A stretch of 64,000 nt of DNA from Candidatus Enterousia sp. (GTDB taxonomy: Bacteria > Pseudomonadota > Alphaproteobacteria > Rs-D84): NCBI GenBank assembly GCA_045613785.1, contig JAZLBQ010000026.1, positions 80,677-144,676 of the forward strand. The letters are read 5' to 3'. The translations under genes and the position numbers were made by a program. Position 1 is the stretch's first letter; each line of letters begins with the position of its first letter. Of the stretch, positions 28,916 to 55,315 are shown piece after piece. The notes below the pieces were generated by a model. It did not search any database. It was given only the letters and a program-made list of their open reading frames with translations, and was not told the origin of the DNA.

Positions 28916-28936
28916 AAACACCCGCAAGGGTGTTTT
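28916..28936 (-). terminator. Terminator downstream of tRNA-Cys
   Basis: AAACACCC-GCAA-GGGTGTTT. Confidence 0.7.
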
Positions 28937-28951
28937 TAGTTCTTTTTTTAG

Positions 28952-29025
28952 TGGAGGCCTGGGTCGGAATCGAACCGGCATCCAAGGATTTGCAGTCCTC
29001 TGCATAACCACTCTGCCACCAGGCC
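28952..29025 (-). tRNA. tRNA-Cys(GCA)
   Basis: Reverse complement GGCCTGGTGGCAGAGTGGTTATGC..CT-GCA-AA..GGTTCGATTCC..CCAGGCCTCCA. Confidence 0.96.
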
Positions 29026-29125
29026 TGAACTTTTTTGTGCAGGGGTATAATACGCAAAAATAAATTGTAATTCAACATAAAAATTGTATAATTAGAAAAG
29101 AAATTTGATAGAGAGAGAATTTTTT

Positions 29126-30469
29126 ATGAAAAAACTGTCACTTATCTTGGCGTGTGCTTTGCCGGTTTCTGCATTTGCTTCTATAGAAGACTGTGCATCA
29201 CGCACAACTATTCCATCTGGAAAGTTAAATTTACCCCAGATTATTGAACTGGGGTTGTGCAGAAATCCGCAAACGGCATCATCTTATTTGGCGTATGAAT
29301 CGGCACGATTTGCAAAAAATGCTGGTTATGCTGATTATTTACCGTCTGTCAGTGTATCTGCCAATGCGTCTTTACCATATCGTAATGAACAGTGGGGCGA
29401 TTGGTCATATGGTGCGTCGCTGTCTGCATCGTATTTGATATTTGATTTTGGAAAACGTTTGTCTGATTTAAATCAGTCAATATCCTCGTGGCGTGCGGCT
29501 GGCTTTGATTATGACGAATCTGTTCAGAATTACGTTTATGGTCTGATTGGTTCTTATTATGCGTTATTAAATGCGGACGCTGATGTTCGTTCTGCTGAAA
29601 TGCTACGCACTGTTGCCAAGACCGCCCAGGACACAGCGAAAAAGAAATTTCAGGCAGGTTCTGTGGCCAAGGCTGATGTGTTAAAGGCAGATACAACACT
29701 TGCCAGTCGTGATTTAGATTTAGAACGTGCAAAGAACAATCGTAAAATTGCCCAGGGTAATTTGCTGGCCAAGTTGTCTTTTTCAGCAGACCAAGAAATT
29801 GAAATTGCTGACCTGCCGTCAAATATTGGCACGCCTCAGGAAACAAAAACGCTGGACGAATTGTTTGCCCAGGCACAAAAGACACGACCTGATTTGTTGC
29901 GTGCCACAGCGAACAAGGATGCAGCCTGGCACCGTCGCAATAGTGTGTTTTTAAGTAATTTACCATCGATTTCTGCATCTGGCTCTATTTCGTGGAATGA
30001 TACCCCATCTGAAACGTATGGTGCGGGTTCTGAAAATATCAGTGGCAGCATTGGAATCCGTGCATCAATGCCGTTGTTTGCAGGTTTTGCAAATTTATAC
30101 AATGCTCGTTCTGCCCAGGCAAATTATGAACGTGCAATGGAACAAGAACGTCAAACCCAGGACAATGCAACACTGGATATTTTTACGGCCTATCATAATT
30201 ACAAGACGGCACAAACGGTTTTGCAGCAAACAGAGACATTGTTAAAGTCAGCGACAGAATCAGAACGTGTAACTGCGGGTATGTATCGTGTTGGTCGTGC
30301 AACAATGTTGGATTGGCAGACAGCACAATCTGAACTGGTAAATGCGGAAAAGCAAAACAATGCAGCTAAGTATGATTTGTTTACAAAGCGTGCGGCGGTT
30401 GCGTTAGCGGTAGGTGAAATTAAAACAGAATTAGAAGGAAAGGCAGATGAAAAAACAAACGACGAATAA
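29126..30469 (+). CDS. TolC-family outer membrane efflux protein
   Basis: Signal peptide and two OEP repeats (NP....YLPSVS; RPDL...LPSIS; MPLFAG). Confidence 0.9.
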   Translation: MKKLSLILACALPVSAFASIEDCASRTTIPSGKLNLPQIIELGLCRNPQTASSYLAYESARFAKNAGYADYLPSVSVSANASLPYRNEQWGDWSYGASLSASYLIFDFGKRLSDLNQSISSWRAAGFDYDESVQNYVYGLIGSYYALLNADADVRSAEMLRTVAKTAQDTAKKKFQAGSVAKADVLKADTTLASRDLDLERAKNNRKIAQGNLLAKLSFSADQEIEIADLPSNIGTPQETKTLDELFAQAQKTRPDLLRATANKDAAWHRRNSVFLSNLPSISASGSISWNDTPSETYGAGSENISGSIGIRASMPLFAGFANLYNARSAQANYERAMEQERQTQDNATLDIFTAYHNYKTAQTVLQQTETLLKSATESERVTAGMYRVGRATMLDWQTAQSELVNAEKQNNAAKYDLFTKRAAVALAVGEIKTELEGKADEKTNDE

Positions 30470-31661
30470 AGTTTCCGAAACCAAGCGTCCATCGATTCTT
30501 CGCAGAATTTGGTCGTATATTTGGCGTAAAAAATGGTGGATAATATTATTGTGTTGTGTCTGTGTTGGGGGCTGGTTGTTGTTTGGGTCAAAGACTAACA
30601 AGCCAGGCGAATTTATCACGGTAAATATTACTCGTGGCGACCTGCGTCAGGTTGTTACAGCAACTGGCGAGATTCGTCCTGTAAATACTGTAAATGTTGG
30701 TTCTCAGGTATCTGGCACGATTGATAATTTATATGTGGACTTTAACAGTCGTGTAAAAAAAGGCGATATTTTGTTGACAATAGAACCATCTGTTTTGCAA
30801 GCGACTGTTGATGAAGCCAAGGCATCGCTAGACAGCACGATTTCTCAGCGTAATTTTGCAAAGAGTGAATATGAACGTGATAAAATGTTGTATAACGAAG
30901 GCTTTATTTCACGTGCAGAAATGGAACAAAAACTAACTCAATATGAACAGTCAGAGCAATCTGTAAAACGTGCACAATCCACATATGATCGTGCTGTAAC
31001 GAATTTGGGGTATGCAACAATTTTATCGCCTGTTGATGGGACCGTAATTTCACGCAAGGTAGATGTTGGTCAGACTGTTGCTGCATCTTTTCAGACACCA
31101 GACTTGTTTGAAATTGCCGAAGATTTAACAAAAATGCAAATTGAAACCGCCGTATCAGAAGCGGACATTGGTGTCATCACAGAGGGTCAGCCTGTGACCT
31201 TTACAGTTGATGCGTATCCAACTGAAACGTTTGATGGTGTTGTTCGTCAGGTGCGTTTGTCGCCAACCACGACATCAAACGTAGTTGTTTATACAGTTGT
31301 GATTGATGTTGATAATTCAGACTTGCGTCTGATGCCAGGTATGACAGCATTTGTAACGATTATAATTTCAGAACGTGATAATGTATGGCGTGCTGCAAAC
31401 TCTGCATTTTTAATTCGCAGTTTTGACAGGTTTTTGGCTCCCGAAGAAATAAGTGGTGCAACACCTGCGTCGCACTTGGCAATATTGCGTGATGGCAATG
31501 TAGTTTTTGTTCCTTATACCAAGGGCTTGACCACTGCGACAGAAACAGAAATTATCTCGGACGAGATTCAAATGGGTGATAAAATTATCACAGGTCGTAT
31601 GGGTATGACATCGACTAATAAGCAGCAAGGAATGTCGCCTATGCGTGGTCCACGAATGTAA
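30447..31661 (+). CDS. MacA-like membrane fusion (periplasmic adaptor) protein
   Basis: VGSQVSGTI, SPVDGTVI, GQTVAASFQTPDLF and LMPGMTA. Confidence 0.9.
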   Translation: MKKQTTNKVSETKRPSILRRIWSYIWRKKWWIILLCCVCVGGWLLFGSKTNKPGEFITVNITRGDLRQVVTATGEIRPVNTVNVGSQVSGTIDNLYVDFNSRVKKGDILLTIEPSVLQATVDEAKASLDSTISQRNFAKSEYERDKMLYNEGFISRAEMEQKLTQYEQSEQSVKRAQSTYDRAVTNLGYATILSPVDGTVISRKVDVGQTVAASFQTPDLFEIAEDLTKMQIETAVSEADIGVITEGQPVTFTVDAYPTETFDGVVRQVRLSPTTTSNVVVYTVVIDVDNSDLRLMPGMTAFVTIIISERDNVWRAANSAFLIRSFDRFLAPEEISGATPASHLAILRDGNVVFVPYTKGLTTATETEIISDEIQMGDKIITGRMGMTSTNKQQGMSPMRGPRM

Positions 31662-31769: not shown

Positions 31770-33032
31770 TTGGCCAATAATTTTATAACAGTTAATCGAA
31801 AAAAATACGCCGTTGGTCTGTTGTGGCAGCCCATTGGGGCTGGTTTTGCTGCCCGTGGTTATGCTCGCAATTTGTCCAAGAATATTGATAAAAAACTGAC
31901 CTTGTTCACAGAATATCGTTCAATGGTTGGTCTGTCATCACGTCGCAATGGTATTCATTCTGGAATGACCAGTGCTGCTGCTGATGTGATGGAAAGTTTT
32001 TCAGAATACACATCATTTATTGCGGTGTTTAATGTTGATAGCAAATATTACCTAGTTGCTGCTCGTAATGGGATAATTTTATCAGATGTTGTTTTTGATA
32101 ATGAACAAGATGCCCGCAATGAATATGTAAAGTTATCCGAGATTCCTGATTGGGGTGCGTTTTTTGCACCGTCTTCGTGGGGAATGCCACGTGCAGCAGA
32201 GCGAAATTTATCAGACTTATTAAACGGTCAATCGCACGCTGTATTGCGTCCAATCAGTCATTTGGGGGCAGGTGTTGTATCGTTGGTATTGTTGGGTATT
32301 TTTGCACTGGTCTTGGGGATTATTTTTCGTGATTCAATAAATCAGGCCTTTACCCCACGTCCTCAGGTTGCGGAACTAGATCCGGAATTGGTTGCAGAAT
32401 ACAAGCGTCAAATCGAAGAAAGCAGCAAGAAATTAGACCAGGAATACCAGATTGAAAAGGTTTTGCCACCAGAACCAATAGTAATGCCATATGAATTATT
32501 GCCTGATGTTGCTGCCCGTGCGGCTCAGTGTTATCAGGCGATTGGTTTTGTGATGCAGCCGATTCCAGGCTGGACACAAATGCGTGCGACGTGTGGTGAA
32601 ACACATGTTACTGCGGAATTTCGTCGCAGTTTTGGCACGTTGGGTGAGTTTTATAATATCGCAACAGAATTGATGCCTGCGTCATTTGTTGAAGAAGTAG
32701 ATGAAAACACAATTCGTATTCGTGCAACCTTGCCGACATTGGAATCATTTGCTTCTCAGGACGAACGAGATGCAGATACTGTTGTTCGTGATATAACAAC
32801 ATTGTTTCAGTCGATTGATACACCTGTTCAAACCCAGGTTGTTGTTGATACGCTGACCAATGGTGTTGACGTTGCGACAGTCAACGTCATAGAAGTTGGT
32901 GCAGAATCAAAACTGATTCCGACGCAGTTTATGGAAATTTTTAGTGAATTTGGCGGCGTTTATCTGATGCAGACATCATGGGACGTTCGCTCACGTTCTT
33001 GGAACTATGAGGTGGTAATCTATGCAAAATAA
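31770..33032 (+). CDS. Type IVb pilus accessory protein, PilO/BfpC-like
   Basis: N-terminal YAVGLLWQ motif, a central TM and C-terminal PIPGW...C; sits ahead of the ATPase and platform genes; TTG start. Confidence 0.65.
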   Translation: MANNFITVNRKKYAVGLLWQPIGAGFAARGYARNLSKNIDKKLTLFTEYRSMVGLSSRRNGIHSGMTSAAADVMESFSEYTSFIAVFNVDSKYYLVAARNGIILSDVVFDNEQDARNEYVKLSEIPDWGAFFAPSSWGMPRAAERNLSDLLNGQSHAVLRPISHLGAGVVSLVLLGIFALVLGIIFRDSINQAFTPRPQVAELDPELVAEYKRQIEESSKKLDQEYQIEKVLPPEPIVMPYELLPDVAARAAQCYQAIGFVMQPIPGWTQMRATCGETHVTAEFRRSFGTLGEFYNIATELMPASFVEEVDENTIRIRATLPTLESFASQDERDADTVVRDITTLFQSIDTPVQTQVVVDTLTNGVDVATVNVIEVGAESKLIPTQFMEIFSEFGGVYLMQTSWDVRSRSWNYEVVIYAK

Positions 33033-33729
33033 CAGCAAGTTTTTATTTGGTTTAATAATCAGTGGCACACTGTCTGTGTTTGGGGCTGCGCATTCAGCTG
33101 ACATTGTCGTTGATGAAGAAGTCGTGGACATTGACCTGGAACAGGCGTCTGCTGATGCGGTTGCTGATTACGACATCAATGGTTCGCTGTTTCAACAGAT
33201 AACCGACCTGGAACAGGAAAAGGTTTTAATGCAACTTGAAAAAGAGCGTGCTCAACTGGACTTGGAATTAGACAGATTAGCGGCAGAAAAAATAAAGTTG
33301 CACATGGAAATTGACACGCTTTCTGGTCGTGCAGAGCAACAGCAACAAGAAATTGAAACACAAAAGGCAAAACTAGAAGCCGAAGCTGCTCGTATCGAGA
33401 AAGAAAAAGATTCTTGGCTGGCGAAAATGGATGCCGAAGAATCCAAGTCATCAAAATCGACAAAAAAATCCAGCAGCAAAGATTCTGACGACGACGAAGA
33501 CGAAGACAGTGTTGATATAACAAAATTATATCGTCTGGTAAATGTTATTGGTGCTGGCTCTCAATTACAGGCAACAGTAGAAGATTTGAAAAGTGGTCAA
33601 AGCAAGCGTATAAGTGTTGGTCGCACATTAAATGGCTTGACTGTAAAATCTATATCGCTTTATGACGGCGTTGTATTTGTTGACGCCGATGGTAAAACCC
33701 AGAATTTGAACATCAGCAACGGAAAGTAA
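33022..33729 (+). CDS. Type IVb pilus biogenesis protein, PilP-like
   Basis: Signal peptide, coiled coil and C-terminal V.G.G..L.A....G..L.G..VKSI beta domain; synteny supports the call. Confidence 0.6.
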   Translation: MQNNSKFLFGLIISGTLSVFGAAHSADIVVDEEVVDIDLEQASADAVADYDINGSLFQQITDLEQEKVLMQLEKERAQLDLELDRLAAEKIKLHMEIDTLSGRAEQQQQEIETQKAKLEAEAARIEKEKDSWLAKMDAEESKSSKSTKKSSSKDSDDDEDEDSVDITKLYRLVNVIGAGSQLQATVEDLKSGQSKRISVGRTLNGLTVKSISLYDGVVFVDADGKTQNLNISNGK

Positions 33730-33733
33730 AATT

Positions 33734-35371
33734 ATGGTTGATTCAAAAGTCCAAGATTTTATTACAACTGATTCCACTACCCAGCCATCAATTCCTGCTG
33801 GGTTGGAAAATTCTGAAACCAAGGACATAATAGATTATCTGTTTTCCAATGGTAATCGTTTGCTGACAGCGACGGGTGCGATTCTAGAATTACCACGTGA
33901 TACCCAGAACTTGATAGCATATTTTACTGGTGGTGAAATAATTATATCACGCACCCATCGATATGACGGTCGTGTTTTATCATTTTTAGAATTGTTAAAG
34001 CAACGTGGTCGCAAAATACGGACACCGTTTTATTCAGATCTTGGGTTGATATCAAATATTTATAAATCGAACGAAATGCATTTGGGGGGGGCATCACGTT
34101 CACGTTCTGATTTTGATAACCAGATGCAGAAAGATTTTGTAGACATAATTGCCAAGGCTGCCGCTCGCAAGGTATCTGATATTCACATCGAAGTTGCGGA
34201 TCAAACAACGATATATTTCCGTGTTGATGGCAGTATACAGCCGGTATTAGAATATAACAGCCAGTGGGGCGAAGCATTTCTTCGTGCGGCTTTTGCGTCA
34301 TCTGATATATCCAATGCGAACTATGCTGTAAATGAATATCAGTCTGCCCAAAAAGATGGTCGCACGCCTTTGCGTGGAACCAAGGATTTGTATTTGCCAT
34401 CTGGCGTGCTGGGCGTTCGTATGCAGTTTAATCCGATTGCCTTTGGAACACGCTATGCGGTTCTGCGTTTATTGTATGACAATCCGTCCGAAGGAATCAA
34501 GATTGAACAGGAATTTGGGCCATATGAACAACGGTTGCTGGCTCGTCTGCGTTCTTTTCCAACAGGTCTGGTAATAGTTGCGGGTCCGACCAGTTCTGGT
34601 AAATCAACAACCCTTGTTCGTAATATGTCGCTGATGTTAAAAGAACATAATTACGAAATCAATATGATTACCGTTGAAAATCCAGTGGAACAAAAGATTT
34701 TTGGTGCACGTCAAATGCCTGTTGTAAATACCACAGACGAAGAGCAACGTGAAAAGAAATATGTAGAAGCCCTGGCTGCTGCATTGCGAAGCGACCCTGA
34801 CACATTGATGGTTGGCGAAATTCGCACACTTGCTGCGGCAGAATTGACTGTTCGTGGTGCATTGTCTGGTCATAACGTATGGACAACATTGCATGCAAAT
34901 TCAGCAATGGCGGCATTGACACGTTTGTTAGATTTGGGGGTAGAGGCATTTAAATTAAAAGAAGAAACCTTGATGCGTGGCTTGGTATCTATGCGTCTGT
35001 TTAAAAAGGTCTGTCCTCATTGTCGTGAACCCTTGGTCAATCATCCAGAGCGTGGTGCATATCGTCGTGTAATGGACGCATACGGTGAAATAGGGCTAAA
35101 CCAAATATATCAGCGTGGATCTGGTTGTCCACATTGTAATGGCACAGGGAACATTGGTCGTGTCAAGGCTGGTGAAATAATCATCACCAACAGTGAATTT
35201 TTACGTCTAGCATTATCTGGCAATACGGACGGTGCTGTCCGCTATTGGCTTGAAGAAATGTCTGGTCGCACATTAAAAGAAGCCGCCGCATCACTAATGT
35301 TGCAGGGTATAATCAGTGTAGATGAACTGGAACGTTGGGTCGGTCAACTTGATCAGCCAGGGGCGTATTGA
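33734..35371 (+). CDS. Pilus assembly ATPase (PilQ/BfpD, GspE-PilB family)
   Basis: SDIHI, FRVDG, GPTSSGKSTT, ENPVE, DPDTLMVGEIR, SGH.VWTTLHAN and two CPHC. Confidence 0.92.
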   Translation: MVDSKVQDFITTDSTTQPSIPAGLENSETKDIIDYLFSNGNRLLTATGAILELPRDTQNLIAYFTGGEIIISRTHRYDGRVLSFLELLKQRGRKIRTPFYSDLGLISNIYKSNEMHLGGASRSRSDFDNQMQKDFVDIIAKAAARKVSDIHIEVADQTTIYFRVDGSIQPVLEYNSQWGEAFLRAAFASSDISNANYAVNEYQSAQKDGRTPLRGTKDLYLPSGVLGVRMQFNPIAFGTRYAVLRLLYDNPSEGIKIEQEFGPYEQRLLARLRSFPTGLVIVAGPTSSGKSTTLVRNMSLMLKEHNYEINMITVENPVEQKIFGARQMPVVNTTDEEQREKKYVEALAAALRSDPDTLMVGEIRTLAAAELTVRGALSGHNVWTTLHANSAMAALTRLLDLGVEAFKLKEETLMRGLVSMRLFKKVCPHCREPLVNHPERGAYRRVMDAYGEIGLNQIYQRGSGCPHCNGTGNIGRVKAGEIIITNSEFLRLALSGNTDGAVRYWLEEMSGRTLKEAAASLMLQGIISVDELERWVGQLDQPGAY

Positions 35372-35372
35372 T

Positions 35373-36443
35373 ATGAATAAACTTGAACTGCTGTATGCAA
35401 AACTTGTATTCAGGTTAAACACTGAAAAGCGTATGTCGATTTGTCGCAAATTAGCATCGTTATTGCGAAATGATTTTACTTTGATAGATGCGCTGGAACG
35501 CCTTGAAATGGTTGAGTCAAAAAATGGCAAAGCACCACATGAACCATTTGCGATTGTTATGCGTCAGTGGCAAAAGAACTTGGAACAGGGTATGACTTTT
35601 TCCGAGGCTACTCGTGGTTGGGTTCCACCGAACGAAACGTTATTGGTAACATCAGGGAATTTATCAAATCTGGTAATTGCACTGGAAAATGTTGGTCGTG
35701 TTGTCGAAGGCACAACCCGTATTCGTCGTGCAATGACATCGGCGATTGGTTATCCGATGTTTTTGTTGGCGTTGACGTTTGGTATTATTATTATGGTTGG
35801 GCTTTATCTAGTTCCGCCATTGGCAGAAATTGCGGGTAATTCAGTTGTCTGGCGTGGTGCTGCCCGTTCATTGATATGGTTGTCTGATTTTTCTATTCAA
35901 TATTGGTATTTGTTTTTAGTTATTTTTGCCGTGATAGTATCAGTTATCTGGCTAAGTTTGGCAAATTGGTCAGGACGGATTCGTGTGTTTTTTGATAAGT
36001 TGCCACCGTGGAATGTTTACAAGATTCAAGTATCTGTTGGTTGGTTGATGTCATTGGCGGCAATGGTTGGTTCTGGTGTTACGATACCTGATGCCATGCG
36101 AATGCTGGCGGATAATGCCAACCGCTATTTACGCAGTATTTTAGATGCTGCCCTTCATCACATTGCCAACGGTGATAACCTTGGGGTTGCACTGACGCAT
36201 ATTGGGCGTGATTTTCCAGACAGTGAAATTATTGGGGATTTGACGATATATGCCGATATGAACGAATTTGATGAAAACCTGAATCAGATTGCGAACGATT
36301 ATCTAAACGAATCTGTCCGCAAGATGGAGCAGATATCAAACACATTAAACAGTCTGGGCATATTGCTAGTTTCTGCCATAATTGCTTGGGTTGTTCTTGG
36401 GACGTTCCAGATGCAAGATCAAATAACGTCTGCATTGACTTAA
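35373..36443 (+). CDS. Pilus inner-membrane platform protein (PilR/BfpE, GspF family)
   Basis: L.SLLRN....DAL, G.TFSEA...WVP.NE and three TMs; follows the ATPase; start at ATG 35373. Confidence 0.88.
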   Translation: MNKLELLYAKLVFRLNTEKRMSICRKLASLLRNDFTLIDALERLEMVESKNGKAPHEPFAIVMRQWQKNLEQGMTFSEATRGWVPPNETLLVTSGNLSNLVIALENVGRVVEGTTRIRRAMTSAIGYPMFLLALTFGIIIMVGLYLVPPLAEIAGNSVVWRGAARSLIWLSDFSIQYWYLFLVIFAVIVSVIWLSLANWSGRIRVFFDKLPPWNVYKIQVSVGWLMSLAAMVGSGVTIPDAMRMLADNANRYLRSILDAALHHIANGDNLGVALTHIGRDFPDSEIIGDLTIYADMNEFDENLNQIANDYLNESVRKMEQISNTLNSLGILLVSAIIAWVVLGTFQMQDQITSALT

Positions 36444-46147: not shown

Positions 46148-46831
46148 TTACCGTGCAGGTGCAATTCGCAATTCAACCCGTCGATTAGTAAGGCGGCCAA
46201 TATCATCTTGTGCTGCGATTGGTCGTGCAGATCCACGCCCAACGATAAACAACCTTGTTGTATTTATGCCTTTTTCAGAAAAATAGACCCCGACACGCTG
46301 TGCCATATCCAATGATAATGCGTTTGCAGCATTTGTATCACGCATTGCATCTGTATAACCAGCGATTTCGATAAATGTAGCGTTGTATTTTTTCAAGATT
46401 TTTACGATTGTATTCAGTGTATCATCGCCTGTGATAGAAATGTCTGCGATATTCAGTTCCATAATCGCATCACGAACTAAAATAACTACAACGTCTGTTC
46501 CTGCACGCTGAACAGAAATTCCTGGTTTTCTCAGTGCGTCATATAACGCAAATTCCAGTTCTGCCATATATTTTGTTGCTATTGCATTGTCGTTTGCAAT
46601 TTTGTCGCCATATTCCATTTCGTCAGGCACCTTGACAGTTCCAGAAATCAATTCTCCGCCCGCTCCCAGATAAACAGGTCGCTTTGCCACCCTTGACATT
46701 TCGGTCATATCTGTAAAACTTGCCCCATTTAAATAATTGCCCCAGGTATATCTAGGCGGGCTAGAATAAGGTGCACACGCCACAGTGGCACACGACAAAC
46801 AAAATAATAAAAATAAGTTCTTTAACTTCAT
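46148..46831 (-). CDS. OmpA-family lipoprotein
   Basis: Lipobox TVAC, IAGYTD...N.LS..A..V and NRRVELRI. Confidence 0.85.
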   Translation of the reverse strand: MKLKNLFLLFCLSCATVACAPYSSPPRYTWGNYLNGASFTDMTEMSRVAKRPVYLGAGGELISGTVKVPDEMEYGDKIANDNAIATKYMAELEFALYDALRKPGISVQRAGTDVVVILVRDAIMELNIADISITGDDTLNTIVKILKKYNATFIEIAGYTDAMRDTNAANALSLDMAQRVGVYFSEKGINTTRLFIVGRGSARPIAAQDDIGRLTNRRVELRIAPAR

Positions 46832-47290
46832 TTATTCAATGACAAACGCAACCTGATTTGTGTTTGAATCAAAACAATTATCTGTCAGTCCTGTTTCAAA
46901 ACCGTTTACCAGCATTGCGGTTGCCCATTTTGGTTGTTTTGCAGAAAAATATTCACATTCATCTGACGATAAATCGACCAGATTTATTGAAAAAGTTTTT
47001 CCATCTGCACTGGATTCGACAGACCAGTTATCGCCACCCAATGGTGCTTTATCAGATTGCAACGCACCTGCTTTTATCAGATAGTCAATAGAAACCCCCT
47101 CATAAGTGCCACGCATTTCCAGCAACAGTTTTGTGTTTTGTGCGATTTGTTCCAATTCTGCATCAGCAATGGTTCGGATTTGGTTTGCTCGTATCATATT
47201 ATATATACCCAAACTAGCGACCGTCATAACCCCGGCGATTGCCATAACACCGATAACTTCGATTAAAGAGCGTCCAGATTCATTGTTCAT
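46832..47290 (-). CDS. Type IV pilin-like protein (PilS-like)
   Basis: Class III signal MNNESG|RSLIEVIGVMAIAGV, C-terminal AP.GG..F.I.L..L...EC...C; the ATG overlaps the dnaX stop. Confidence 0.8.
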   Translation of the reverse strand: MNNESGRSLIEVIGVMAIAGVMTVASLGIYNMIRANQIRTIADAELEQIAQNTKLLLEMRGTYEGVSIDYLIKAGALQSDKAPLGGDNWSVESSADGKTFSINLVDLSSDECEYFSAKQPKWATAMLVNGFETGLTDNCFDSNTNQVAFVIE

Positions 47291-48870
47291 TATTTTACCC
47301 CCACTATTTCTGCATTTTCGAACAGATTCATTGCACTTGCGACCAATGGGTCTGCTTCTAATTCTTCTTGTTTTTGTTCGCTGAAAGTATGCGTATGGAC
47401 AGATTCTGTTGCACGTTCCAATGCCCATTGTTTGCCTGTTTTATCGAACAGCCACGCACCCAGTTTGTGTGCAAAGTCTGCATCGCCCTTGCGGTCAAAG
47501 TATTTAATTTTACCGTCTTCAAACTCTGCAATTTCAATATTAGCACTGTAATAAGAATACAATAAAATTTCCTTGGTTTCTTGCAAGGCGGTCGCTAAAT
47601 CATTTGCAGACTTGATTACACGAAAATTCTTTTGTTCTGTTGCTTGGCTTGGTTGTGCTGATGGGGTTGCCCCTTGTGCCATACGGTCTGCAAAGATATT
47701 TTTTACTTCACGCACCCGATTAGCAGATTCTTGTTGTTTAATGATTTCTGGGATTGATGGCATATCTGCAATATGCATCATTCGCACCACCAGCATATCA
47801 AAACACTGTTTTTGGTTGCCAGTCGCTTGCATTTCTGGCACAGCTGCCACCATAACCTGCCAAATTCTGGACAGTGTATTTACAGAAATCCGTCCGTTCA
47901 AATTTTGAATTTGATCACGTTGGTCGGCGGTATAAGGTGAATTTGTAACATTGCCGGCATGCAGTGCTGGGTGCATACGTGTTGCCCAATGTGTCCATTC
48001 CATCATATCTGTCAGCAACATAGATAAATCAGCACCGTTATTATAAATCTCGTCAACTTTTTCCAGTGCGGCGGCAGTGTCTCCTGATAACAGTATTTTC
48101 ATAAAGTCAACGACCACAGCCCTGTCAGCACGTTTTAACATATCTAAAACAGCTTTTTCATCGACTTTGCCACCTGTTTGTGCGATTGCCTGATCCAGCA
48201 AGGACAAACCATCACGCACAGACCCGTCAGCCGCCCGTGCCAGTAATTCGTTTGCTTCATCACTCAGTTCGATATTTTCGTTTTCTGCAATCCAGGCGAA
48301 GTGCTTTTTTAATGTGTCAACTGGCACACGCACCAAATCAAAACGCTGGCAGCGTGAAAGGATTGTTACAGGCACTTTTCTAATTTCAGTTGTTGCCAGG
48401 ATAAAAATAACATGTGCTGGTGGTTCTTCCAGTGTTTTCAACAAAGCGTTAAATGCCGATATTGATAACATATGAACTTCGTCGATGATGTAAACACGAT
48501 ATCTGCCGTTTGTTGGTCTGTATTGTGCACCGTCCAGGATATCACGCATATTGTCAACACCTGTATGTGAAGCAGCGTCAATTTCCATAACGTCAATATG
48601 CTGACCTGCGGCAATAGCCCGACAATTTTCGCATTTGCCACATGGTGTTGCGGTTGCCTTGTCCCCAGACAGACAGTTCAAAGCCTTGGCCAAGATACGT
48701 GCCGTGCTGGTTTTACCCGTTCCACGGATACCAGTGAAAATATAAGCATGTGCAATACGTGAAGTATTGATTGCGGTTGTTAGTGTTTTGACTAATACGT
48801 CTTGACCGATAAGAGATTTAAAATCCTGACTGCGATATTTGCGTGCTAGAACTGTATAATTGTTTTCCAT
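47290..48870 (-). CDS. dnaX: DNA polymerase III subunit gamma/tau
   Basis: LARKYR, GIRGTGKT, a Zn site, EIDAAS, IIDEVHML and SRCQRF; start at ATG 48870. Confidence 0.96.
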   Translation of the reverse strand: MENNYTVLARKYRSQDFKSLIGQDVLVKTLTTAINTSRIAHAYIFTGIRGTGKTSTARILAKALNCLSGDKATATPCGKCENCRAIAAGQHIDVMEIDAASHTGVDNMRDILDGAQYRPTNGRYRVYIIDEVHMLSISAFNALLKTLEEPPAHVIFILATTEIRKVPVTILSRCQRFDLVRVPVDTLKKHFAWIAENENIELSDEANELLARAADGSVRDGLSLLDQAIAQTGGKVDEKAVLDMLKRADRAVVVDFMKILLSGDTAAALEKVDEIYNNGADLSMLLTDMMEWTHWATRMHPALHAGNVTNSPYTADQRDQIQNLNGRISVNTLSRIWQVMVAAVPEMQATGNQKQCFDMLVVRMMHIADMPSIPEIIKQQESANRVREVKNIFADRMAQGATPSAQPSQATEQKNFRVIKSANDLATALQETKEILLYSYYSANIEIAEFEDGKIKYFDRKGDADFAHKLGAWLFDKTGKQWALERATESVHTHTFSEQKQEELEADPLVASAMNLFENAEIVGVK

Positions 48871-48923
48871 AATAACCAACTTCCTTTTAGAACCAGCATA
48901 GCAAAACATCGTGAAATTTCAAC

Positions 48924-48955
48924 AAATAAAACGCACCCAAAAGTGCGTTTTATTT
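48924..48955 (-). terminator. Intrinsic terminator
   Basis: AAATAAAACGCAC-CCAAAA-GTGCGTTTTATTT. Confidence 0.75.
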
Positions 48956-48957
48956 AA

Positions 48958-49290
48958 TTATTTCAGGTTAGTAATAAAGTCTGGGAATCCAGGATCGTCA
49001 TCGTCCTGGGAATCGGCACCTTCTGAATCAGATTCTGTTTCAGCCTGTGCAGCAATTTCATTTTCTGCCTGTGCTGTGGTCTTGTCTTTTGGATCACGTG
49101 TTGAATCAATTTTACCTTGTTCAGCGTTTACCATACGACCATAATGCTCTGCTGTTTGCAACAAGCGTTCACGTTCGATTTCGTCAGCGGTCTGGCGTGC
49201 TTGGTCGATATATTGTTTTCTTTTTTGCCGCCACTTGTGGCAACGCTGTATCATCTGTCCGACATTGGATTGATTTTTTTTGTTTTGCAT
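48958..49290 (-). CDS. DUF4167-like protein
   Basis: Y...AR...D..E.E..LQ.AEHY.R motif and acidic tail PDFI. Confidence 0.6.
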   Translation of the reverse strand: MQNKKNQSNVGQMIQRCHKWRQKRKQYIDQARQTADEIERERLLQTAEHYGRMVNAEQGKIDSTRDPKDKTTAQAENEIAAQAETESDSEGADSQDDDDPGFPDFITNLK

Positions 49291-49434
49291 ATCTTTTCTT
49301 TTTCAACAGGAAACAATCTTATAACAACTACTACTTTTGTTGTTATGCTTAACGATGTCAATATTAAAACAAGTTAAAACTGATTGCAATAATTTTTTTC
49401 TGTTGCTAACCTAAGGTTTGTAGGAGGATTTATT

Positions 49435-50790
49435 TTGCATCAAGAACGTGGAAATTTCTTACTTCAAGCCCTGTTGGCACTGGGGTTGATTTTTGCGTTT
49501 ATTCCATTTTTGACTCGCAATATTGCAGGGCGTGAATCTGATGCACGAATGTATTCTGCTACCCGTCAGGTTGATTTGGCTCAAACTGCTGCACGTATAT
49601 TTATTCGTGAAAATGCTCGTGATATACCGTATGAAACAACGGTTGTATCTGGAAATGATTTTTCTGATTTGCTAGAACCATATGGTTTACCGCTAGGTTT
49701 TGTTCCACGAACTGCACTGGGGCAAGATATATCTTTGGTAATGCATAAAACGCCGATGGCTGTTTCTGCATATATAGAATTGTCTGGGGGTAATTTGTCT
49801 GATGTTTCACGTGCTGAACTGGCACGTCGAATTGGTTTTTATGCAAATGTTGTTGAAGAAAGTGTTCGTATTGGAATTGAACTGACCGATATTTATTCTG
49901 ATGTTGTTCGCAGGAACGAGCCGAATTTTGACAACAGTGGATTTTTATCAGACCTTGATATGGGAAATTTTGTTTTAGATAATGTTGGGAACTTGTTTGC
50001 ATTAAACGGTGAATTTAAAGGCGCTGAATTTAACACATTGACTATTTCTGGAATTGAAAGTGGCCGTGATGCTACAAATGAAATCAAGATGATGTCTGCA
50101 GCCAAGGCAGTGTTTCAAAGTAAAACTGGTGAATCGGCATTGACTTTAACACGTGGCACGCTTTATGCAGACGGTGTTCAAACACGAACAATATCAAATT
50201 TTGGGGATACAGGAAATTTTGTTGCAGATGATGTTTCGCTGTATGAAATATCGATGACTGCTGGTCGCACTGCTTTTACAGGGCCTGGCGATTGGTTGGT
50301 TCATGGAAATGTTGTATCAAATCGTGTTAGTCTTAGTGTTGAACGCCTGGACGTTTCATCTTATATAAATGTAACTCGTGGTCAAGACGTTTATATTGAT
50401 GGTGAAACACTGGAATATAATTCTAAATCAGGGATAGAGGTTGGCACTCTTTACACATCGAACATAACATTGCGTGATCAAACATCAAACGCCCTAGATT
50501 CTGGCAAGGCAGGTTCTGTAATATTAGATATTCGACCAAATGGAACAACGATGCTGCCAGACGTTTGGCTAGAAAGTGTAAATAATGATGATTTTGAAAT
50601 TATAGATACACCATCTGTGGACGACGGTAAAACAGTTTCGTGCGAGTCTATAATAAAAAATTTCGAGGGTGCATATAATAAACAATCGCTTTCTCAATAC
50701 CTGATATGTCAGTATGTTTATTGGCAGCGTCTGGAAAAGCGTATAAATATCAAACAGTGTTTAATGGCAGGTGGCAGTGGCTGTATGTAA
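49435..50790 (+). CDS. PilV-like minor (tip) pilin 1, with Gln at position +5
   Basis: AGGAGG then TTG start; G|NFLLQALLALG; YGLP.GF....LGQ; DLDMGNF.L.NV. Confidence 0.65.
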   Translation: MHQERGNFLLQALLALGLIFAFIPFLTRNIAGRESDARMYSATRQVDLAQTAARIFIRENARDIPYETTVVSGNDFSDLLEPYGLPLGFVPRTALGQDISLVMHKTPMAVSAYIELSGGNLSDVSRAELARRIGFYANVVEESVRIGIELTDIYSDVVRRNEPNFDNSGFLSDLDMGNFVLDNVGNLFALNGEFKGAEFNTLTISGIESGRDATNEIKMMSAAKAVFQSKTGESALTLTRGTLYADGVQTRTISNFGDTGNFVADDVSLYEISMTAGRTAFTGPGDWLVHGNVVSNRVSLSVERLDVSSYINVTRGQDVYIDGETLEYNSKSGIEVGTLYTSNITLRDQTSNALDSGKAGSVILDIRPNGTTMLPDVWLESVNNDDFEIIDTPSVDDGKTVSCESIIKNFEGAYNKQSLSQYLICQYVYWQRLEKRINIKQCLMAGGSGCM

Positions 50791-52009
50791 AACCAAGATT
50801 TTTTCGAATAACTCATCAGGTGCCAGTATAATGGAAGTTTTACTGGCTATGGCGATTATTGCGGTTGCTGCACCGTTTGTCTATAACCAGATTGCCAAAA
50901 CAAATCATACGATTCAGGATATTGCAACGGCACGTCGTATAATGTCTGTTCGTAATAATGCACTAAATTTTGTTCGCATGAACCAAGACAAATGGCCAGA
51001 CGTTGCCCAGATAAAACTTGATGAAACGGAACTGGAACAAATCAGTCCAGATGCGGCTGCTGGTTTTATTGATAAGTATTCTGTAAATGGTGCGTTTATT
51101 ACAGATGTTTATTTAGCGTTTGAATTAGCAAATTCTGAACTGAATACTAACAAGGTTGCTCGTCATATTGGTGGTGATGCGGCGGTTGTAGGGGAAGATT
51201 CTGTTGCTTATGGTAATACCTGGGCGGTATCTGCCCCTGATTTTGTTCCTGGGGATTTAATATATCGTATATCACGTGATGTTTCTGGCGAAGACACATC
51301 AAAATATTTGCATCGTGGCACATCAGGCGAAGACGAATTAAACGTTATGAAGCGTGATTTAGACATGGGGGGTCATAATATTTATAACGTTGCAATGATA
51401 ACGGGTGATTCTGCCCGGGCTAAGAACGCAAACACATCATTTTTGACATCAGATGATGTTGTTGCAAACACAATATATTTTTCATCTGGTGCAAACATTG
51501 ATGGCCAAGATGTTAGCATTGGGGATTTGCGTGTATCTGGTGATATGTCGGGGTTTCGAAATGTCAGTGCATTGCGTATCAATGAAGGCAATAAATTTAC
51601 GACATCTGGTCGGGTTATTGCAGACCGTGTTTCGGTTACAGAAAAGATAAACATCGGCAATAACCTAGTTTTAAAGTCAGACAGTGCCAGCACAATCAGT
51701 GGCTTTACAGGCGTTTCGGTCAGTTCTGTTATTGCCCCATATATATCTGCCGAAGAAATGATTTTTTATGAAAACTTTGGTTTGACAGTTTCGGGTGAAT
51801 TATTGATGTCAACGGTTTCACCTATAAAGATTGGTGATTGGGTTTTTCCATCGACCAAACCGCCACGTTTTTCTAAATTTACATTATCACGTGGTGAAAA
51901 TCCATCAGCACCCAAACGCAATGCTTTTGCACCATTGGTTCGCAGTGGTTGGTCTGAAACCGCAGACACGCCATCGACGATTTTACCAGTGTTGCCAACA
52001 AATAATTAA
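50771..52009 (+). CDS. PilV-like minor (tip) pilin 2
   Basis: G|ASIMEVLLAMAII; IGGDA; YLHR.....ELNVM.RDLDMGGHNI.N (shufflon N-terminal constant-region-like); exact start uncertain. Confidence 0.75.
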   Translation: MAVAVCKTKIFSNNSSGASIMEVLLAMAIIAVAAPFVYNQIAKTNHTIQDIATARRIMSVRNNALNFVRMNQDKWPDVAQIKLDETELEQISPDAAAGFIDKYSVNGAFITDVYLAFELANSELNTNKVARHIGGDAAVVGEDSVAYGNTWAVSAPDFVPGDLIYRISRDVSGEDTSKYLHRGTSGEDELNVMKRDLDMGGHNIYNVAMITGDSARAKNANTSFLTSDDVVANTIYFSSGANIDGQDVSIGDLRVSGDMSGFRNVSALRINEGNKFTTSGRVIADRVSVTEKINIGNNLVLKSDSASTISGFTGVSVSSVIAPYISAEEMIFYENFGLTVSGELLMSTVSPIKIGDWVFPSTKPPRFSKFTLSRGENPSAPKRNAFAPLVRSGWSETADTPSTILPVLPTNN

Positions 52010-52021
52010 ACAGGATAAAAA

Positions 52022-53338
52022 TTGAACGCACGAACCAAGATTTTTGCTAATAAGAATTCTTCTCAAGGCTCTATGCTGATAGAGTTGATGCTAAGCGTTG
52101 CATTGGCGGCTTTGATAATTCCGTATGCGTTTCGTTATCAGCAGTCTTCTATTTTGCGGGCTCAAAACATTGCGATAACAAATCAGATGACAGAAATACA
52201 GGTTGCGCTGGAACGGTATATAATTGCAAATCGTCCTGAACTATTGCGAACAGTTGGTCGAAATATTACACGGGTTAGTATTTCAGAACTTGAACCCTAT
52301 GGTTTGCCTGAAAGTGTCTTATCCCAAGGTGATGAAAAATATCAGTTGCGTATTTTGAAATCAACCGACATAACTGGCCCTTCGACTTTACAGGGTGTTG
52401 TAATTCGTGCATCTGATGACATTACTCCGCTTCGAACACGTGAAATTGTGAATTTGTCTGGTGGTTCGATGGGATTTATTGATGGCACACACGCATATGG
52501 CACATTTGGGGCGTGGCACACAGACAGCATAGATTTAGGTGTCGATACAGATAATGCGATTATTGAAACAACGTCGATAAATCGTGATAATGCACTGCAT
52601 TTATGGCGTGTTCCGTCAAATAATCCGGATGATGCAAAAATGCAATCGCCTTTGAATTTAGGTGGACACGACATAACAGGCGTAAAGTTTTTAAATGCAG
52701 ATTATACTGATTTTTCTGAACGTCTAACTGTTGATAAGACTGTTTCAAGTAATCTTATTTTTAGTAATCGGCCAACAATCAACAATGGCTTCAAGGTTGT
52801 TTCTGCGAACGTTTCTGGTATGTTATCATCAGATGCCAAGAATATGGAAATATCTGGCCAGTTGTCATTGGCTGATTTGGCCAAGATGTCATCACTAACT
52901 GCGGGCAATTTGTGGGTATCGAATTTGACTTTGGGAGGCTTGTCTATAGATTCCAGCAAAAAATACGCCTTGCTAAAAGTCAACCAAGCCCTTGATATGA
53001 CATCGGGTCATATTGATGCGATGTTTGTGTCTGTCGGTTTTACAGGCTCTATCACGCCACGCTTGATTGTTTATGATAAAGTTGTTGATTCTGTAAATTC
53101 GGACTATTACTGGGATGCGTCATTAAATCGAGCAAATTTTAATGATGCCTCATTTGTTGAATTAAATCGTATGGCGACCTTGGCGACAATATCCGAAGGC
53201 GATAAATCAACGGCATCAGGTCAAATATTTGGTTCTGTATCTGCGAACAAGAACGCAACGGTTGCGGATTATATGAACGCAATCCGTAAAATTCAAACCC
53301 AGGTTCAGGAAAAATATCGCTTGTTGAATTTAGAATAA
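52022..53338 (+). CDS. PilV-like minor (tip) pilin 3
   Basis: TTG start; G|SMLIELMLSVAL; YGLP; GG.MGFI.G..AYGTFGAW; LWRVP......MQSPLNLGGHDI. Confidence 0.75.
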   Translation: MNARTKIFANKNSSQGSMLIELMLSVALAALIIPYAFRYQQSSILRAQNIAITNQMTEIQVALERYIIANRPELLRTVGRNITRVSISELEPYGLPESVLSQGDEKYQLRILKSTDITGPSTLQGVVIRASDDITPLRTREIVNLSGGSMGFIDGTHAYGTFGAWHTDSIDLGVDTDNAIIETTSINRDNALHLWRVPSNNPDDAKMQSPLNLGGHDITGVKFLNADYTDFSERLTVDKTVSSNLIFSNRPTINNGFKVVSANVSGMLSSDAKNMEISGQLSLADLAKMSSLTAGNLWVSNLTLGGLSIDSSKKYALLKVNQALDMTSGHIDAMFVSVGFTGSITPRLIVYDKVVDSVNSDYYWDASLNRANFNDASFVELNRMATLATISEGDKSTASGQIFGSVSANKNATVADYMNAIRKIQTQVQEKYRLLNLE

Positions 53339-53358
53339 AATATGGTATAAATATCACT

Positions 53359-53886
53359 ATGAAAATAAAATGCGACTTTTGTAAAACAGAATATTCGTTG
53401 GACGAAAATCCAAATTCGTCGGTCAAATGTGCACTGTGTGGCAACACCTGGACGGTATCTGCACCGCCACGCAAAAATTCTATATTGATGTTTATTGCGT
53501 CATTGTGTGCATTGCTGTCGGCGATTGTATTTACTGCTGCGGTTATCACGCATCATCAGGCCAAGCGGGTTGTTCTTGGTCCATTGGTTGCGACAGTATC
53601 AGGTGTTGATACAATAACTGACGAAGAAGGCGTTTCGCACTTGGTGGTAAATGGCACGATTGAAAATATATCAAGCGAGATTTATGGTGTTCCTGATTTG
53701 ATAATTGTTTCGTCTGACCAAGAGGGGCGTGTTTTAGCACAACAGAAGTTTATGCCATCAGCAACATTGCTAGATTCTGGTGCGACTGTAAATTTTCGTC
53801 ATATGTTATCGCCTCAGCCTGCTGGTGTAAAAAAGATATCTGCACGGTTGGCTGATTTACAAGTGCCACAAGGGGATAAAAAATGA
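53359..53886 (+). CDS. Zinc-ribbon + TM + DUF3426-like protein (ZitP-like architecture)
   Basis: CDFC..Y.......VKCALCGNTW, a TM, then LVVNGTIEN....VPDL.....D..G..L. Confidence 0.7.
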   Translation: MKIKCDFCKTEYSLDENPNSSVKCALCGNTWTVSAPPRKNSILMFIASLCALLSAIVFTAAVITHHQAKRVVLGPLVATVSGVDTITDEEGVSHLVVNGTIENISSEIYGVPDLIIVSSDQEGRVLAQQKFMPSATLLDSGATVNFRHMLSPQPAGVKKISARLADLQVPQGDKK

Positions 53887-54341
53887 AGAAATTGATATTG
53901 TCATTATGTTCGTTGTTTGTTGCCACGGTGGTGTTTGCGGCTGATGCCCCCAGTCCACGGGTTAGTATTTTTTCAACCAGCACAGATTGGCAGGGTGTAA
54001 CGGGGCTGACTTTGAACGAGTATAATGGGAAATTTATTTCTGATAAAAAATTGGTTGGTCGTGGTCTAGTTTTGTATTATTTGGACGGTTTTCCGTGTTA
54101 TGGATTGGGTTATGGTGTTCGTGTATGGGTTGCCCCTGACGGCAAGACAGATAATGATTTGCACATTGCGTGTGTGGCGGCACCGACTGAAATCAAGTTT
54201 GCGTATCGTAATGCCACTCGTGATGCAGACCAGGCAACGACAACGGGGCTTTTGACATGTCCTGTATCTGATGACGGTCGTGAATTGACGATTGATTTAT
54301 CTGAATGCACGGTTGGTCCTGATTGGGACGAATATAAATAG
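53883..54341 (+). CDS. Hypothetical secreted protein
   Basis: Signal peptide and four mature-region Cys; ATGA overlap with the upstream gene. Confidence 0.7.
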   Translation: MKKLILSLCSLFVATVVFAADAPSPRVSIFSTSTDWQGVTGLTLNEYNGKFISDKKLVGRGLVLYYLDGFPCYGLGYGVRVWVAPDGKTDNDLHIACVAAPTEIKFAYRNATRDADQATTTGLLTCPVSDDGRELTIDLSECTVGPDWDEYK

Positions 54342-54352
54342 GTTTTGTTATT

Positions 54353-55315
54353 ATGGTTGAAATTCGTGAATTTATTGTATCTGAAACTGATGAATTGACT
54401 CGCTTGGATAAGTTTTTGTCTGGCAAAATGCCTGAATTTTCCCGCAGCGAGATTCAGCGTTTTAACGTCCGCCATCTTGATGGCAGTGCTGTAAAGTTTT
54501 CTGAAAAAATCCGCCTGGGTGATGGTTTTACTGTCGAAGTTCCAGCCCCCCAGACCGAAGTTGCGACTGAAAATATATCGTCTGATTTTGATCTGGATAT
54601 TTTATACGAAGATGATGATATCATTGTGATAAACAAGCCACGTGGTGTTGTTATGTATCCGTCTGCTGGCAACAAGACAGGCACATTGGTTCAGAATATT
54701 TTATCACATACACATCTGTCTGCACTGGGTGGTGCGACCCGTCCGGGTGTTGTTCATCGTCTGGACAAAGACACCAGTGGTGTAATGGTTTTTGCGAAAT
54801 CAGATGCGGCATTTCGTGAGCTGGTGCGTGTATTTTCAGAGCATGATTTGACCCGCAAATATATTGCATTTACCTGGGGATTGCCGAATTGGGAGGTTGC
54901 CGACATAACCGGCAATATCGCTCGATCATCACGAAATCGTCAAAAAATGACAATGGTGAAAACTGGCGGAAAAAGTTCACATACCGAAGTGGCGGTAATA
55001 AACGCCTGGTCCCGTGCCAAGGTTTCCGAAATGCGTTGCACTTTGTTCACTGGTCGGACTCATCAGATACGTGTTCACTTGTCTGCCCATGGATTTCCTG
55101 TTTTGTGCGACCCGTTGTATGGTCGTGGTGCGGCACGTCTGGGGTCTGTTCGTGATGCTGAATTGCTGGATTTTTTAAAGAATCATAATGGCCAGATGTT
55201 GCATGCCGAAGTTTTGGAATTTGCCCACCCTATAACAGGTGAACAAATGCGTTTCAAGACCCGTTTGCCCGAAGATATGATGGAATTGAAATATATCCTG
55301 GACGACATTGGTTAA
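54353..55315 (+). CDS. rluD: RluA/RluD-family pseudouridine synthase
   Basis: RLDKFL, RPGVVHRLDKDTSG, TGRTHQIRVH and LHA..L.F.HP.TG. Confidence 0.88.
   Translation: MVEIREFIVSETDELTRLDKFLSGKMPEFSRSEIQRFNVRHLDGSAVKFSEKIRLGDGFTVEVPAPQTEVATENISSDFDLDILYEDDDIIVINKPRGVVMYPSAGNKTGTLVQNILSHTHLSALGGATRPGVVHRLDKDTSGVMVFAKSDAAFRELVRVFSEHDLTRKYIAFTWGLPNWEVADITGNIARSSRNRQKMTMVKTGGKSSHTEVAVINAWSRAKVSEMRCTLFTGRTHQIRVHLSAHGFPVLCDPLYGRGAARLGSVRDAELLDFLKNHNGQMLHAEVLEFAHPITGEQMRFKTRLPEDMMELKYILDDIG

Follow-up and report, generated by a model that had tools for sequence, protein, structure and literature searches.

Three tandem PilV-like minor pilin genes without a shufflon in Candidatus Enterousia: a possible heterotrimeric tip of a chromosomal type IVb pilus

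Introduction

The window analyzed here is a stretch of 64,000 nucleotides (nt) from Candidatus Enterousia sp. (GenBank assembly GCA_045613785.1, contig JAZLBQ010000026.1, positions 80,677 to 144,676 of the forward strand; the genome is 1.04 Mb and 96.5% complete). It carries three closely packed genes for PilV-like minor pilins, here called g1, g2, and g3. The question raised by this locus is whether the three proteins build one pilus tip together or serve as three alternative tips. Enterousia has been placed in the order Rs-D84, whose genome-reduced members have little biosynthesis of their own and probably depend on a partner (PMC12306168). In the excerpt of that paper, type IV pili are reported only for another lineage. 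No pilus work was found in the literature mentioning Enterousia (mostly titles), and no PilV trio was described in that on heterotrimers of type IVb minor pilins (titles and abstract openings).

As detailed below, the products of g1, g2, and g3 very probably belong to the PilV family and serve a type IVb pilus as minor pilins. For the whole account, in which the three proteins would form the heterotrimeric tip of a chromosomal R64-like type IVb pilus, we estimate a probability of roughly one half.

The three genes encode distant PilV homologues

The open reading frame (ORF) list returned the three tandem ORFs with the same coordinates, sizes, and TTG/GTG/TTG starts as given in the preliminary description of this DNA (Table 1). 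The g1 and g2 genes overlap by 20 nt, and a gap of 12 nt separates g2 from g3. An AGGAGG sequence is located 7 nt upstream of the TTG codon of g1. The first in-frame ATG of each gene falls no earlier than the cleavage site of the prepilin signal, indicating that non-ATG starts are required for the signal to be retained. Among Enterousia orthologues with a recognisable signal, no ATG was found upstream of the Gly(-1) codon in 54/72 g1, 54/77 g2, and 3/80 g3 genes. Thus, the non-ATG habit is conserved in g1 and g2, but not in g3. Furthermore, the g1 stop codon was located 23-38 nt ahead of the g2 Gly(-1) codon in 72 loci, which places the g2 start inside g1.

All three translations showed a class III prepilin signal followed by a hydrophobic N-terminal helix. 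Glu5 was present in g2 and g3, whereas g1 carried Gln5, so that the signals previously described for the three genes, and the absence of Glu5 from g1 only, were borne out. The pattern G/xxxx(E/Q) (the slash marks the cleavage site) with a hydrophobic helix was found in 47/47 ORFs of 16 arrays, comprising the window and 15 other loci. Together with the mutual profile matches described below, this indicated that the signal pattern had not arisen by chance. The shared (D/P)L(D/N)(M/L)G(G/N) motif noted earlier, hereafter the junction motif, was recovered as DLDMGN in g1 (residues 173-178), DLDMGG in g2 (196-201), and PLNLGG in g3 (210-215), and its columns were nearly invariant in the orthologue alignments of the three genes.

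Next, the relationship to PilV was analyzed. When the genome was scanned with PF04917 (Shufflon_N), g3 was the only match (window positions 52181-52789; expect (E) value 1.6e-5, 23 bits), and the orthologue P0003 reached 26.5 bits against the same model. In an hmmscan of the g1, g2, and g3 proteins, Shufflon_N was unlisted at E up to 1. A phmmer search with g3 against 1.84 billion representatives returned 141 proteins at E up to 0.001. These included P0220 (E 6.9e-7), which is a true Shufflon_N member (E 2.3e-45 against PF04917). Profiles of g1, g2, and g3, built from Rs-D84 orthologues only, were aligned to P0220 by hhalign with probabilities of 97.0% (E 1.1e-10), 98.0% (E 2.3e-13), and 98.3%, respectively, over 206-226 columns that include the junction motif. 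An ESM Atlas language-model search with g1 likewise gave PilV as its best named clusters, with a score of 0.95. These comparisons support the view that all three are distant PilV/Shufflon_N homologues, as had been proposed, although they stay below the formal Pfam threshold.

The three profiles also matched one another with E values of 8e-32 to 8e-43 (g2 against g3, E 8.4e-43 over 286 columns). These similarities covered the first 220-290 residues and did not extend beyond, in agreement with the divergent C-termini reported for the trio. In the PDB, the g3-family profile matched pilin N-termini at E 5.8e-6, while the g3 sequence hit only a laccase among the chains, at E 0.83; CofB and TcpB were unmatched by either query. 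A weak match of the same profile (columns 237-343, E 0.019) to 9cuy_g, a protein of a phage tail fibre, is taken as a lead only. For g2, the weak family matches were N_methyl of Pfam (E 0.03) and TIGR01707 GspI (E 0.025), both below cut-off. A search for homologous proteins returned mostly near-identical metagenome copies.

Single-chain models pointed in the same direction. In the AlphaFold2 (AF2) model of g1, whose predicted local distance difference test (pLDDT) value was 58, a helix (residues 3-59) was followed by a head (68-148) with pLDDT in the 80s, and the C-terminal part was confident. Residues 150-380 were almost unmodelled in this single chain (pLDDT 25-55). The g3 model (pLDDT 72) contained a helix of 56 residues (14-69), a head (82-195), and three C-terminal helices (379-434); the middle in between (about 220-355) resembled a beta-helix, at low confidence (pLDDT 53-62). 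In a VIA structural search, g1 matched the enterotoxigenic Escherichia coli (ETEC) pilus subunit 9iuf_A (Z 8.1), TcpA (Z 7.9), TcpB 7w63_A (Z 7.9; root-mean-square deviation (rmsd) 2.9, 113 residues aligned), and CofB 4qs4_A (Z 7.5; rmsd 3.3, 131 aligned). All of the top seven matches were type IVb pilins or PilM (Z 6.4-8.1), and the next had a Z of 5.0. EpsI-EpsJ (2ret_A, Z 4.8) and GspI (3ci0_I, Z 4.4) were weak matches. The N-terminal domain of g3 matched an ETEC type IVb pilin (Z 7.9) and TcpA (Z 7.4), and beta-helix proteins scored Z 8-10.8; by VIA's own note, the Z values of the type IVb pilin matches of both proteins are middling. TcpB and CofB were absent from the 50 matches listed for g3, which beta-helix proteins filled. 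With the complete g3 model as query, Foldseek gave no PDB match at E up to 0.001, and its best hits were beta-helix proteins and PilM 3eoi (probability 0.87). As modelled, the N-terminal domains of g1 and g3 look like the type IVb pilin fold.

The trio has no shufflon. Positions 48900-54400 contained only short imperfect repeats and no sfx-like repeat family. An Rci recombinase was not found either, the only two PF00589 tyrosine recombinases of the genome being XerD-like and XerC-like, although at 96.5% completeness Rci or sfx sites could lie on a missing contig. The search of the genome thus returned neither element, consistent with the earlier claim.

Conservation and origin of the trio

We then analyzed how the trio is conserved. 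The order g1-g2-g3 was found in 76/80 Enterousia loci, and the other four were cut by contig ends. Across the six families of Rs-D84 (individual families carry our labels f1, f2, and so on), three tandem prepilin-type ORFs were present in 14/15 loci, and the fifteenth stops at a contig end. The ORFs of these sampled arrays were 398-544 amino acids (aa) as called, with some starts over-extended. The number of three and the gene order therefore recur in the relatives, where the preliminary description had proposed to look for them.

Genome-wide, the g2 profile matched 149/151 Rs-D84 genomes. Three matches were observed in 118 genomes, four or five in 24, two in 7, and none in 2, in a tally made by hand in which matches do not equal copy numbers; the two matchless genomes were 61-70% complete. 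Outside family f1, 13 of 29 genomes had four or five matches (families f2, f3, f5, and f6), and the arrays read there consisted of three genes. A fourth PilV-like paralogue may exist in these families. Also outside family f1, weaker PilV-like matches were detected in 26/298 sampled alphaproteobacterial genomes, with 1-5 copies and ORFs of about 100 to 1,200 aa; this count takes in the unpublished genome G202, and is 25/297 without it.

A quick maximum-likelihood tree of 47 proteins grouped them by array position. Only two label changes, the minimum, were needed, compared with a mean of 22.6 upon shuffling, and 0/200 shuffles were as low. Branch support came from the Shimodaira-Hasegawa-like approximate likelihood ratio test only and was weak along the backbone; several long branches were flagged, and gene-1 proteins fell into two groups. 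The grouping by position suggests that the triplication is older than the order Rs-D84, and that the trio represents three old orthogroups that were anciently duplicated. In Enterousia, mean column identity was 0.44-0.78 along g1, g2, and g3, except for the last 20-40 residues of g1 and g2. This even conservation indicated that no hypervariable C-terminal domain is present. When the lengths of the middle regions were compared by eye between families, no clear pattern of co-variation among the three genes was seen.

Predicted assembly of g1, g2, and g3

The regions following the pilin domains were co-folded with alignments at 1:1:1 stoichiometry (g2, 175-412; g3, 190-438; g1, 150-451, as the scored partner). 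The interaction prediction score from aligned errors (ipSAE) was 0.79, 0.78, and 0.77 (score 0.78), whereas the best control, with g3 replaced, reached 0.41 and two with the partner replaced gave 0.00. The pass mark of the co-fold was met by 58/80 solved complexes and 2/110 mismatched pairs. About 1,370-1,400 contacts were formed in register along the whole length of the three chains, and the runs agreed in at least 94%. The pLDDT was 82-83 for the partner g1 and 85-86 for the other chains. The post-pilin region of g1 was confident only in the complex, compared with 25-55 for the same region alone, and its pLDDT dropped to 55 when g3 was replaced. An obligate heterotrimer had been suggested for this locus; the 1:1:1 co-fold passes (0.78 against 0.41 for the control), which lends that suggestion the support of a model and not proof. 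On the strength of these models, we consider the odds of a g1:g2:g3 heterotrimer slightly better than even.

In the assembly that we propose, the trio would be co-translated from one operon. Each subunit starts with a prepilin leader, followed by a long N-terminal helix, a head of type IVb (modelled for g1 and g3), the conserved junction motif, a beta-rich middle, and a C-terminal domain of its own. The post-pilin regions would fold together at 1:1:1 into one intertwined fibre. This fibre would stand on top of the three pilin domains at the pilus tip, prime assembly, and bind the partner cell. In Enterousia, the Gln5-carrying g1 would come first and lie nearest the tip, because a pilin that lacks Glu5 is able to begin a filament but not to dock beneath another subunit. 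That the trio is a tip adhesin for a partner cell seems to us a balanced proposition, in which tip location, adhesion, and priming are points that we infer only. Its fullest form, an obligate 1:1:1 heterotrimer that builds one intertwined fibre and acts as the partner-holding organ of the whole order Rs-D84, is tentative and falls somewhat short of even odds.

Residue 5 of gene 1

Gln5 was observed in 71/72 Enterousia g1 proteins with a covered N-terminus, the single exception being probably an alignment offset, and in gene 1 of 3/3 loci of family f3. Glu5 was kept in every g2 and g3 with a visible N-terminus. First subunits of the GspK family also lack Glu5, and position-5 variants of TcpB, including E5Q, still restore pilus assembly, with pilus functions impaired (both PMC5207764). 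By analogy, the confinement of Glu5 loss to gene 1 fits a subunit in which Glu5 is dispensable and which would come first in the filament. In the quick tree, two Gln5 groups each adjoin a Glu5 group. This would mean two separate losses of Glu5 in the gene-1 orthogroup, a claim for which the tree is not firm enough.

A tip capped by the Gln5 subunit had been part of the original proposal. Such a cap may apply in Enterousia, in which Gln5 of g1 is fixed, and Gln5 also occurs in family f3, but gene 1 carries Glu5 in 7/7 loci of the four families f2, f4, f5, and f6. Gln5 is therefore neither a requirement for the trio nor its defining feature.

Pilus machinery and neighbouring genes

Family matches suggest that an R64-type type IVb machine accompanies the trio, with a TcpQ-like protein, PilN-type secretin, PilO, ATPase, platform protein, PilS-like pilin, and peptidase. 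The genes are spread over three contigs and form no single operon. Those for the assembly ATPase, the PilO-like protein, and the platform protein are located ~15 kb upstream of the trio (Table 1), and the 235-aa ORF among them occupies what we take to be the PilP position of R64. Contig C24 encodes a TcpQ-domain protein (E 1.9e-18) and a lipoprotein secretin, whose best family was PilN of type IVB (E 2.3e-70, below the family cut-off). A prepilin peptidase of 156 aa is encoded on contig C3. The small pilin gave matches that stayed below cut-off to the PilS N-terminal family (E 0.0055) and to N_methyl (E 0.004); it was syntenic in 70/80 Enterousia loci and has a paralogue on contig C24.

Table 1. 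Features of the window in and around the pilin trio (g1, g2, and g3), with positions counted from the first nucleotide of the window; a slash in a peptide marks the cleavage site.
Feature	Position	Strand	Remarks
PilO-type pilin accessory protein	31770..33032	+	PF06864 PAP_PilO, E 7e-9, 35.4 bits (cut-off 26.7 exceeded)
235-aa ORF between PilO-like and ATPase genes	33022..33729	+	no family match at E below 0.04; position only
Pilus assembly ATPase (GspE/PilB/PilQ class)	33734..35371	+	PF00437, E 1.3e-61
Platform protein (GspF/PilC/PilR class)	35322..36443	+	PF00482, E 1.3e-25
Small pilin, candidate major pilin	46832..47293	-	153 aa; G/RSLIE; beside dnaX; N_methyl E 0.0012 (genome scan)
Promoter-like site upstream of g1, weak candidate	49364..49393	+	9/12 consensus matches; TG before second hexamer
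g1, PilV-like minor pilin	49435..50790	+	TTG start; 451 aa; leader 6 aa, MHQERG/NFLLQ; Gln5 (ORF list)
g2, PilV-like minor pilin	50771..52009	+	GTG start; 412 aa; leader 17 aa, NNSSG/ASIME (ORF list)
g3, PilV-like minor pilin	52022..53338	+	TTG start; 438 aa; leader 16 aa, NSSQG/SMLIE (ORF list)
ZitP-like protein	53359..53886	+	175 aa; zinc ribbon, membrane helix, DUF3426-like C-terminus; 20 nt past g3
152-aa protein	53883..54341	+	no Pfam/NCBIfam match; 4-nt overlap with ZitP-like gene; syntenic in 80/80 loci

A PF00437 scan revealed no retraction ATPase, since the only other match in the genome was VirB11-like. The R64 pilus is not known to have a retraction ATPase either. With its match to TIGR02788 (E 2.1e-41, below cut-off), the VirB11-like gene itself (contig C3, locus L002, 523-1518, minus strand) hints that this reduced genome encodes a type IV secretion system.

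The ZitP-like gene was found directly after g3 in 80/80 Enterousia loci, and ~3 kb further downstream in family f3. Its product exceeded the cut-off for MJ0042_CXXC (22.3 bits, cut-off 20.9), and matches to Zn_ribbon_4 (E 3e-5) and DUF3426 (E 0.015) were below cut-off. ZitP of Caulobacter, which has the same architecture, has been linked to polar pilus biogenesis (PMC5182063). The full neighbourhood was conserved in 64/80 loci, with the ompA-like, pilin, and dnaX genes and a 110-aa gene on one strand; the opposite strand carries g1-g2-g3, then the genes for the zinc-ribbon and 152-aa proteins, and rluD. Regarding transcription, the promoter scan gave 26 sites against 18.3 expected, and the promoter and terminator scans together were near shuffled expectation. 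Short, near-identical contigs from one gut metatranscriptome run mapped to g1, the g1/g2 junction, g2, and g3. This is a weak hint that the trio is expressed, as an RNA library can contain DNA; the run covers 18/30 bins, and the uncovered parts carry no meaning.

Several other features were observed beside these genes. Immediately upstream of the PilO-like gene and in the same orientation, the window (29105-31661, plus strand) encodes an outer membrane factor resembling TolC (PF02321 E 2.3e-53) and an HlyD-like membrane fusion protein. An OmpA-family-like lipoprotein gene (46148-46831, minus strand) abuts the small pilin gene and was syntenic with it in 70/80 Enterousia loci. Small exported and glycine-rich repeat proteins (GGxGG, GNTGG) are encoded at L005 2502-3500, downstream of the secretin gene on contig C24, and at L003 3-509, near the peptidase gene; the one such protein searched had no family match. 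A tRNA-Cys gene (28952-29025, minus strand) is located inside the 5' end of a RecF/SMC-like ORF (27792-29078), whose true start is probably further downstream.

Weighing one tip against the alternatives

Several points weigh against a heterotrimeric tip built by PilV-like proteins. With respect to homology, g3 (23 bits) does not reach the PF04917 cut-off of 27.5 bits, and no Pfam or NCBIfam model scored above cut-off on g1, g2, or g3. With respect to the models, the calibration of the co-fold holds only roughly for a three-chain job with user-made alignments. The co-fold was made at 1:1:1 only, so no preference over homotrimers or 2:1 mixtures follows from it. Modelled alone, g3 formed a self-contained single-chain beta-helix (pLDDT 53-62), unlike the intertwined trimer. 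As to conservation, four or five g2-profile matches in 24/151 Rs-D84 genomes and two in 7/151 depart from the number three, and gene 1 keeps Glu5 in the four families named above. Furthermore, first subunits of the GspK type are usually encoded at the 3' end (PMC5207764), whereas g1 is the 5' end of the set. The placement of PilV at the tip only is still an open matter for most type IV pili, according to the excerpt of PMC9045228 on TP114.

The trio could instead be a set of fixed alternative adhesins, each paralogue forming its own homotrimeric tip like that of CofB or TcpB, as a hard-wired substitute for a shufflon. The solved type IVb tips, those of CofB and of the toxin-coregulated pilus (TCP), are homotrimers of a single minor pilin (PMC13533445), and PilV variants with different C-termini choose different receptors (PMC9045228). 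The likeness of g1, g2, and g3 over the N-terminal 220-290 residues with divergence beyond agrees with such a set, and so do the 1-5 PilV-like matches of varied size in other alphaproteobacteria. However, a variable number of genes would then be expected, whereas number and order are fixed order-wide, the C-terminal parts are as well conserved as the pilin heads, and the loss of Glu5 is confined to gene 1. The behaviour of g1 also speaks for partners, its pLDDT rising from 25-55 alone to 82-83 with g2 and g3 and reaching only 55 with g3 replaced. The co-folded regions are little alike, so that a pass by mere likeness between cousins is less likely; 0/84 distant cousins passed. Separate homotrimeric tips are thus a weakened reading, which we regard as rather unlikely.

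Alternatively, the three proteins may act only as a priming complex like GspI-J-K, with staggered pilin domains at the start of the filament and C-terminal regions that are independent modules. Outside the minimal type IVb systems, minor-pilin tips are as a rule heterotrimeric, as in GspIJK, Streptococcus sanguinis PilA-B-C, and Myxococcus KilLMN (PMC12075869; PMC5207764), and such sets are characterised by one member that lacks Glu5. The single-chain beta-helix modelled for g3 would suit an independent module as well. Nevertheless, the passing co-fold contained the post-pilin regions only, and these made their roughly 1,370-1,400 contacts over the full length. The structural matches of g1 to GspI/EpsI were weak (Z 4.4-4.8) compared with those to type IVb pilins (Z 7.5-8.1), and the three proteins, paralogues of each other, do not appear to be I-, J-, and K-like. 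We therefore consider a purely priming role quite improbable.

It is very improbable that the trio forms a pseudopilus tip, in a machine for secretion or uptake that ends short of the cell exterior at the outer membrane: the single assembly ATPase with no PilT-like ATPase in the PF00437 scan, the TolC-like and HlyD-like genes directly upstream of the PilO-like gene, and the many metabolites that this lineage must import (PMC12306168) would agree with it, but the accessory proteins are of type IVb (PAP_PilO, TcpQ, and PilN-type secretin) and not GspC, L, or M of a type II secretion system (T2SS), a retraction ATPase is also missing from TCP and from the CFA/III (colonization factor antigen III) pili (PMC5207764 for TCP), and two small pilins are available as shaft subunits.

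Comparison with known systems

If true, the heterotrimer proposed here would give type IVb pili their first described heteromeric tip. In evolution it would also stand as an alternative to shufflon switching as well as to the homotrimeric tip of CofB and TcpB. The type IVb tips solved so far are all homotrimers made from a single minor pilin, as stated in the excerpt of PMC13533445, and the seating of PilV on type IVb pili is unsettled. With three fixed paralogues in the places of the tip, one of which lacks Glu5, ordinary protein chemistry could address both the order of the subunits and what Glu5 does. A conserved pilus that ends in a large composite tip would furthermore be a candidate attachment organ of Rs-D84/Enterousia, and a handle for finding the partner cell.

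The trio resembles PilV of the IncI1/IncI2 thin pili (R64, R721, and TP114) in its size of about 400-450 aa, its prepilin leader, and its non-Phe +1 residue. The N-terminal constant region is homologous, with a junction of the form (Y)L.R...N.M...(L/I)(D/N)(M/L)G.H.(I/L).N, after which the C-terminal regions diverge, and the R64-type partners (a PilO-like protein, PilN-type secretin, and PilS-like small pilin) are found here as well. Unlike plasmid PilV, the Enterousia trio is chromosomal, in a 1.04 Mb genome with no adjoining conjugation system. It consists of three full-length genes instead of one gene with swappable 3' ends, and neither Rci nor sfx sites accompany it. Furthermore, its C-terminal parts are conserved and not variable, g1 has Gln5, and its scores remain below the Pfam cut-off.

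As in the trio, beta-rich C-terminal domains come after the pilin domain in CofB of ETEC CFA/III and TcpB of Vibrio cholerae TCP; the assembly proposed here is likewise threefold, and no retraction ATPase was found. In those systems, however, one minor pilin gene yields a homotrimer (PMC13533445), in contrast to the three paralogues and the modelled heterotrimer described here. In addition, CofB and TcpB keep Glu5 (PMC5207764), which is replaced by Gln5 in Enterousia g1.

GspI-J-K of the T2SS, PilA-B-C of the S. sanguinis type IVa pilus, and KilL-M-N of the Myxococcus Kil/Tad system share with the trio three pilins encoded side by side, a proposed role in priming and at the tip, and one member without Glu5. 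Their extra domains are likewise interwoven at the tip, which for KilLMN was predicted by AlphaFold (PMC12075869). Those sets comprise distinct I, J, and K families, whereas the Enterousia proteins appear to be PilV paralogues of a type IVb machine. Moreover, the member without Glu5 is usually encoded last in GspK-type sets, but first in Enterousia, where g1 is also the largest of the trio.

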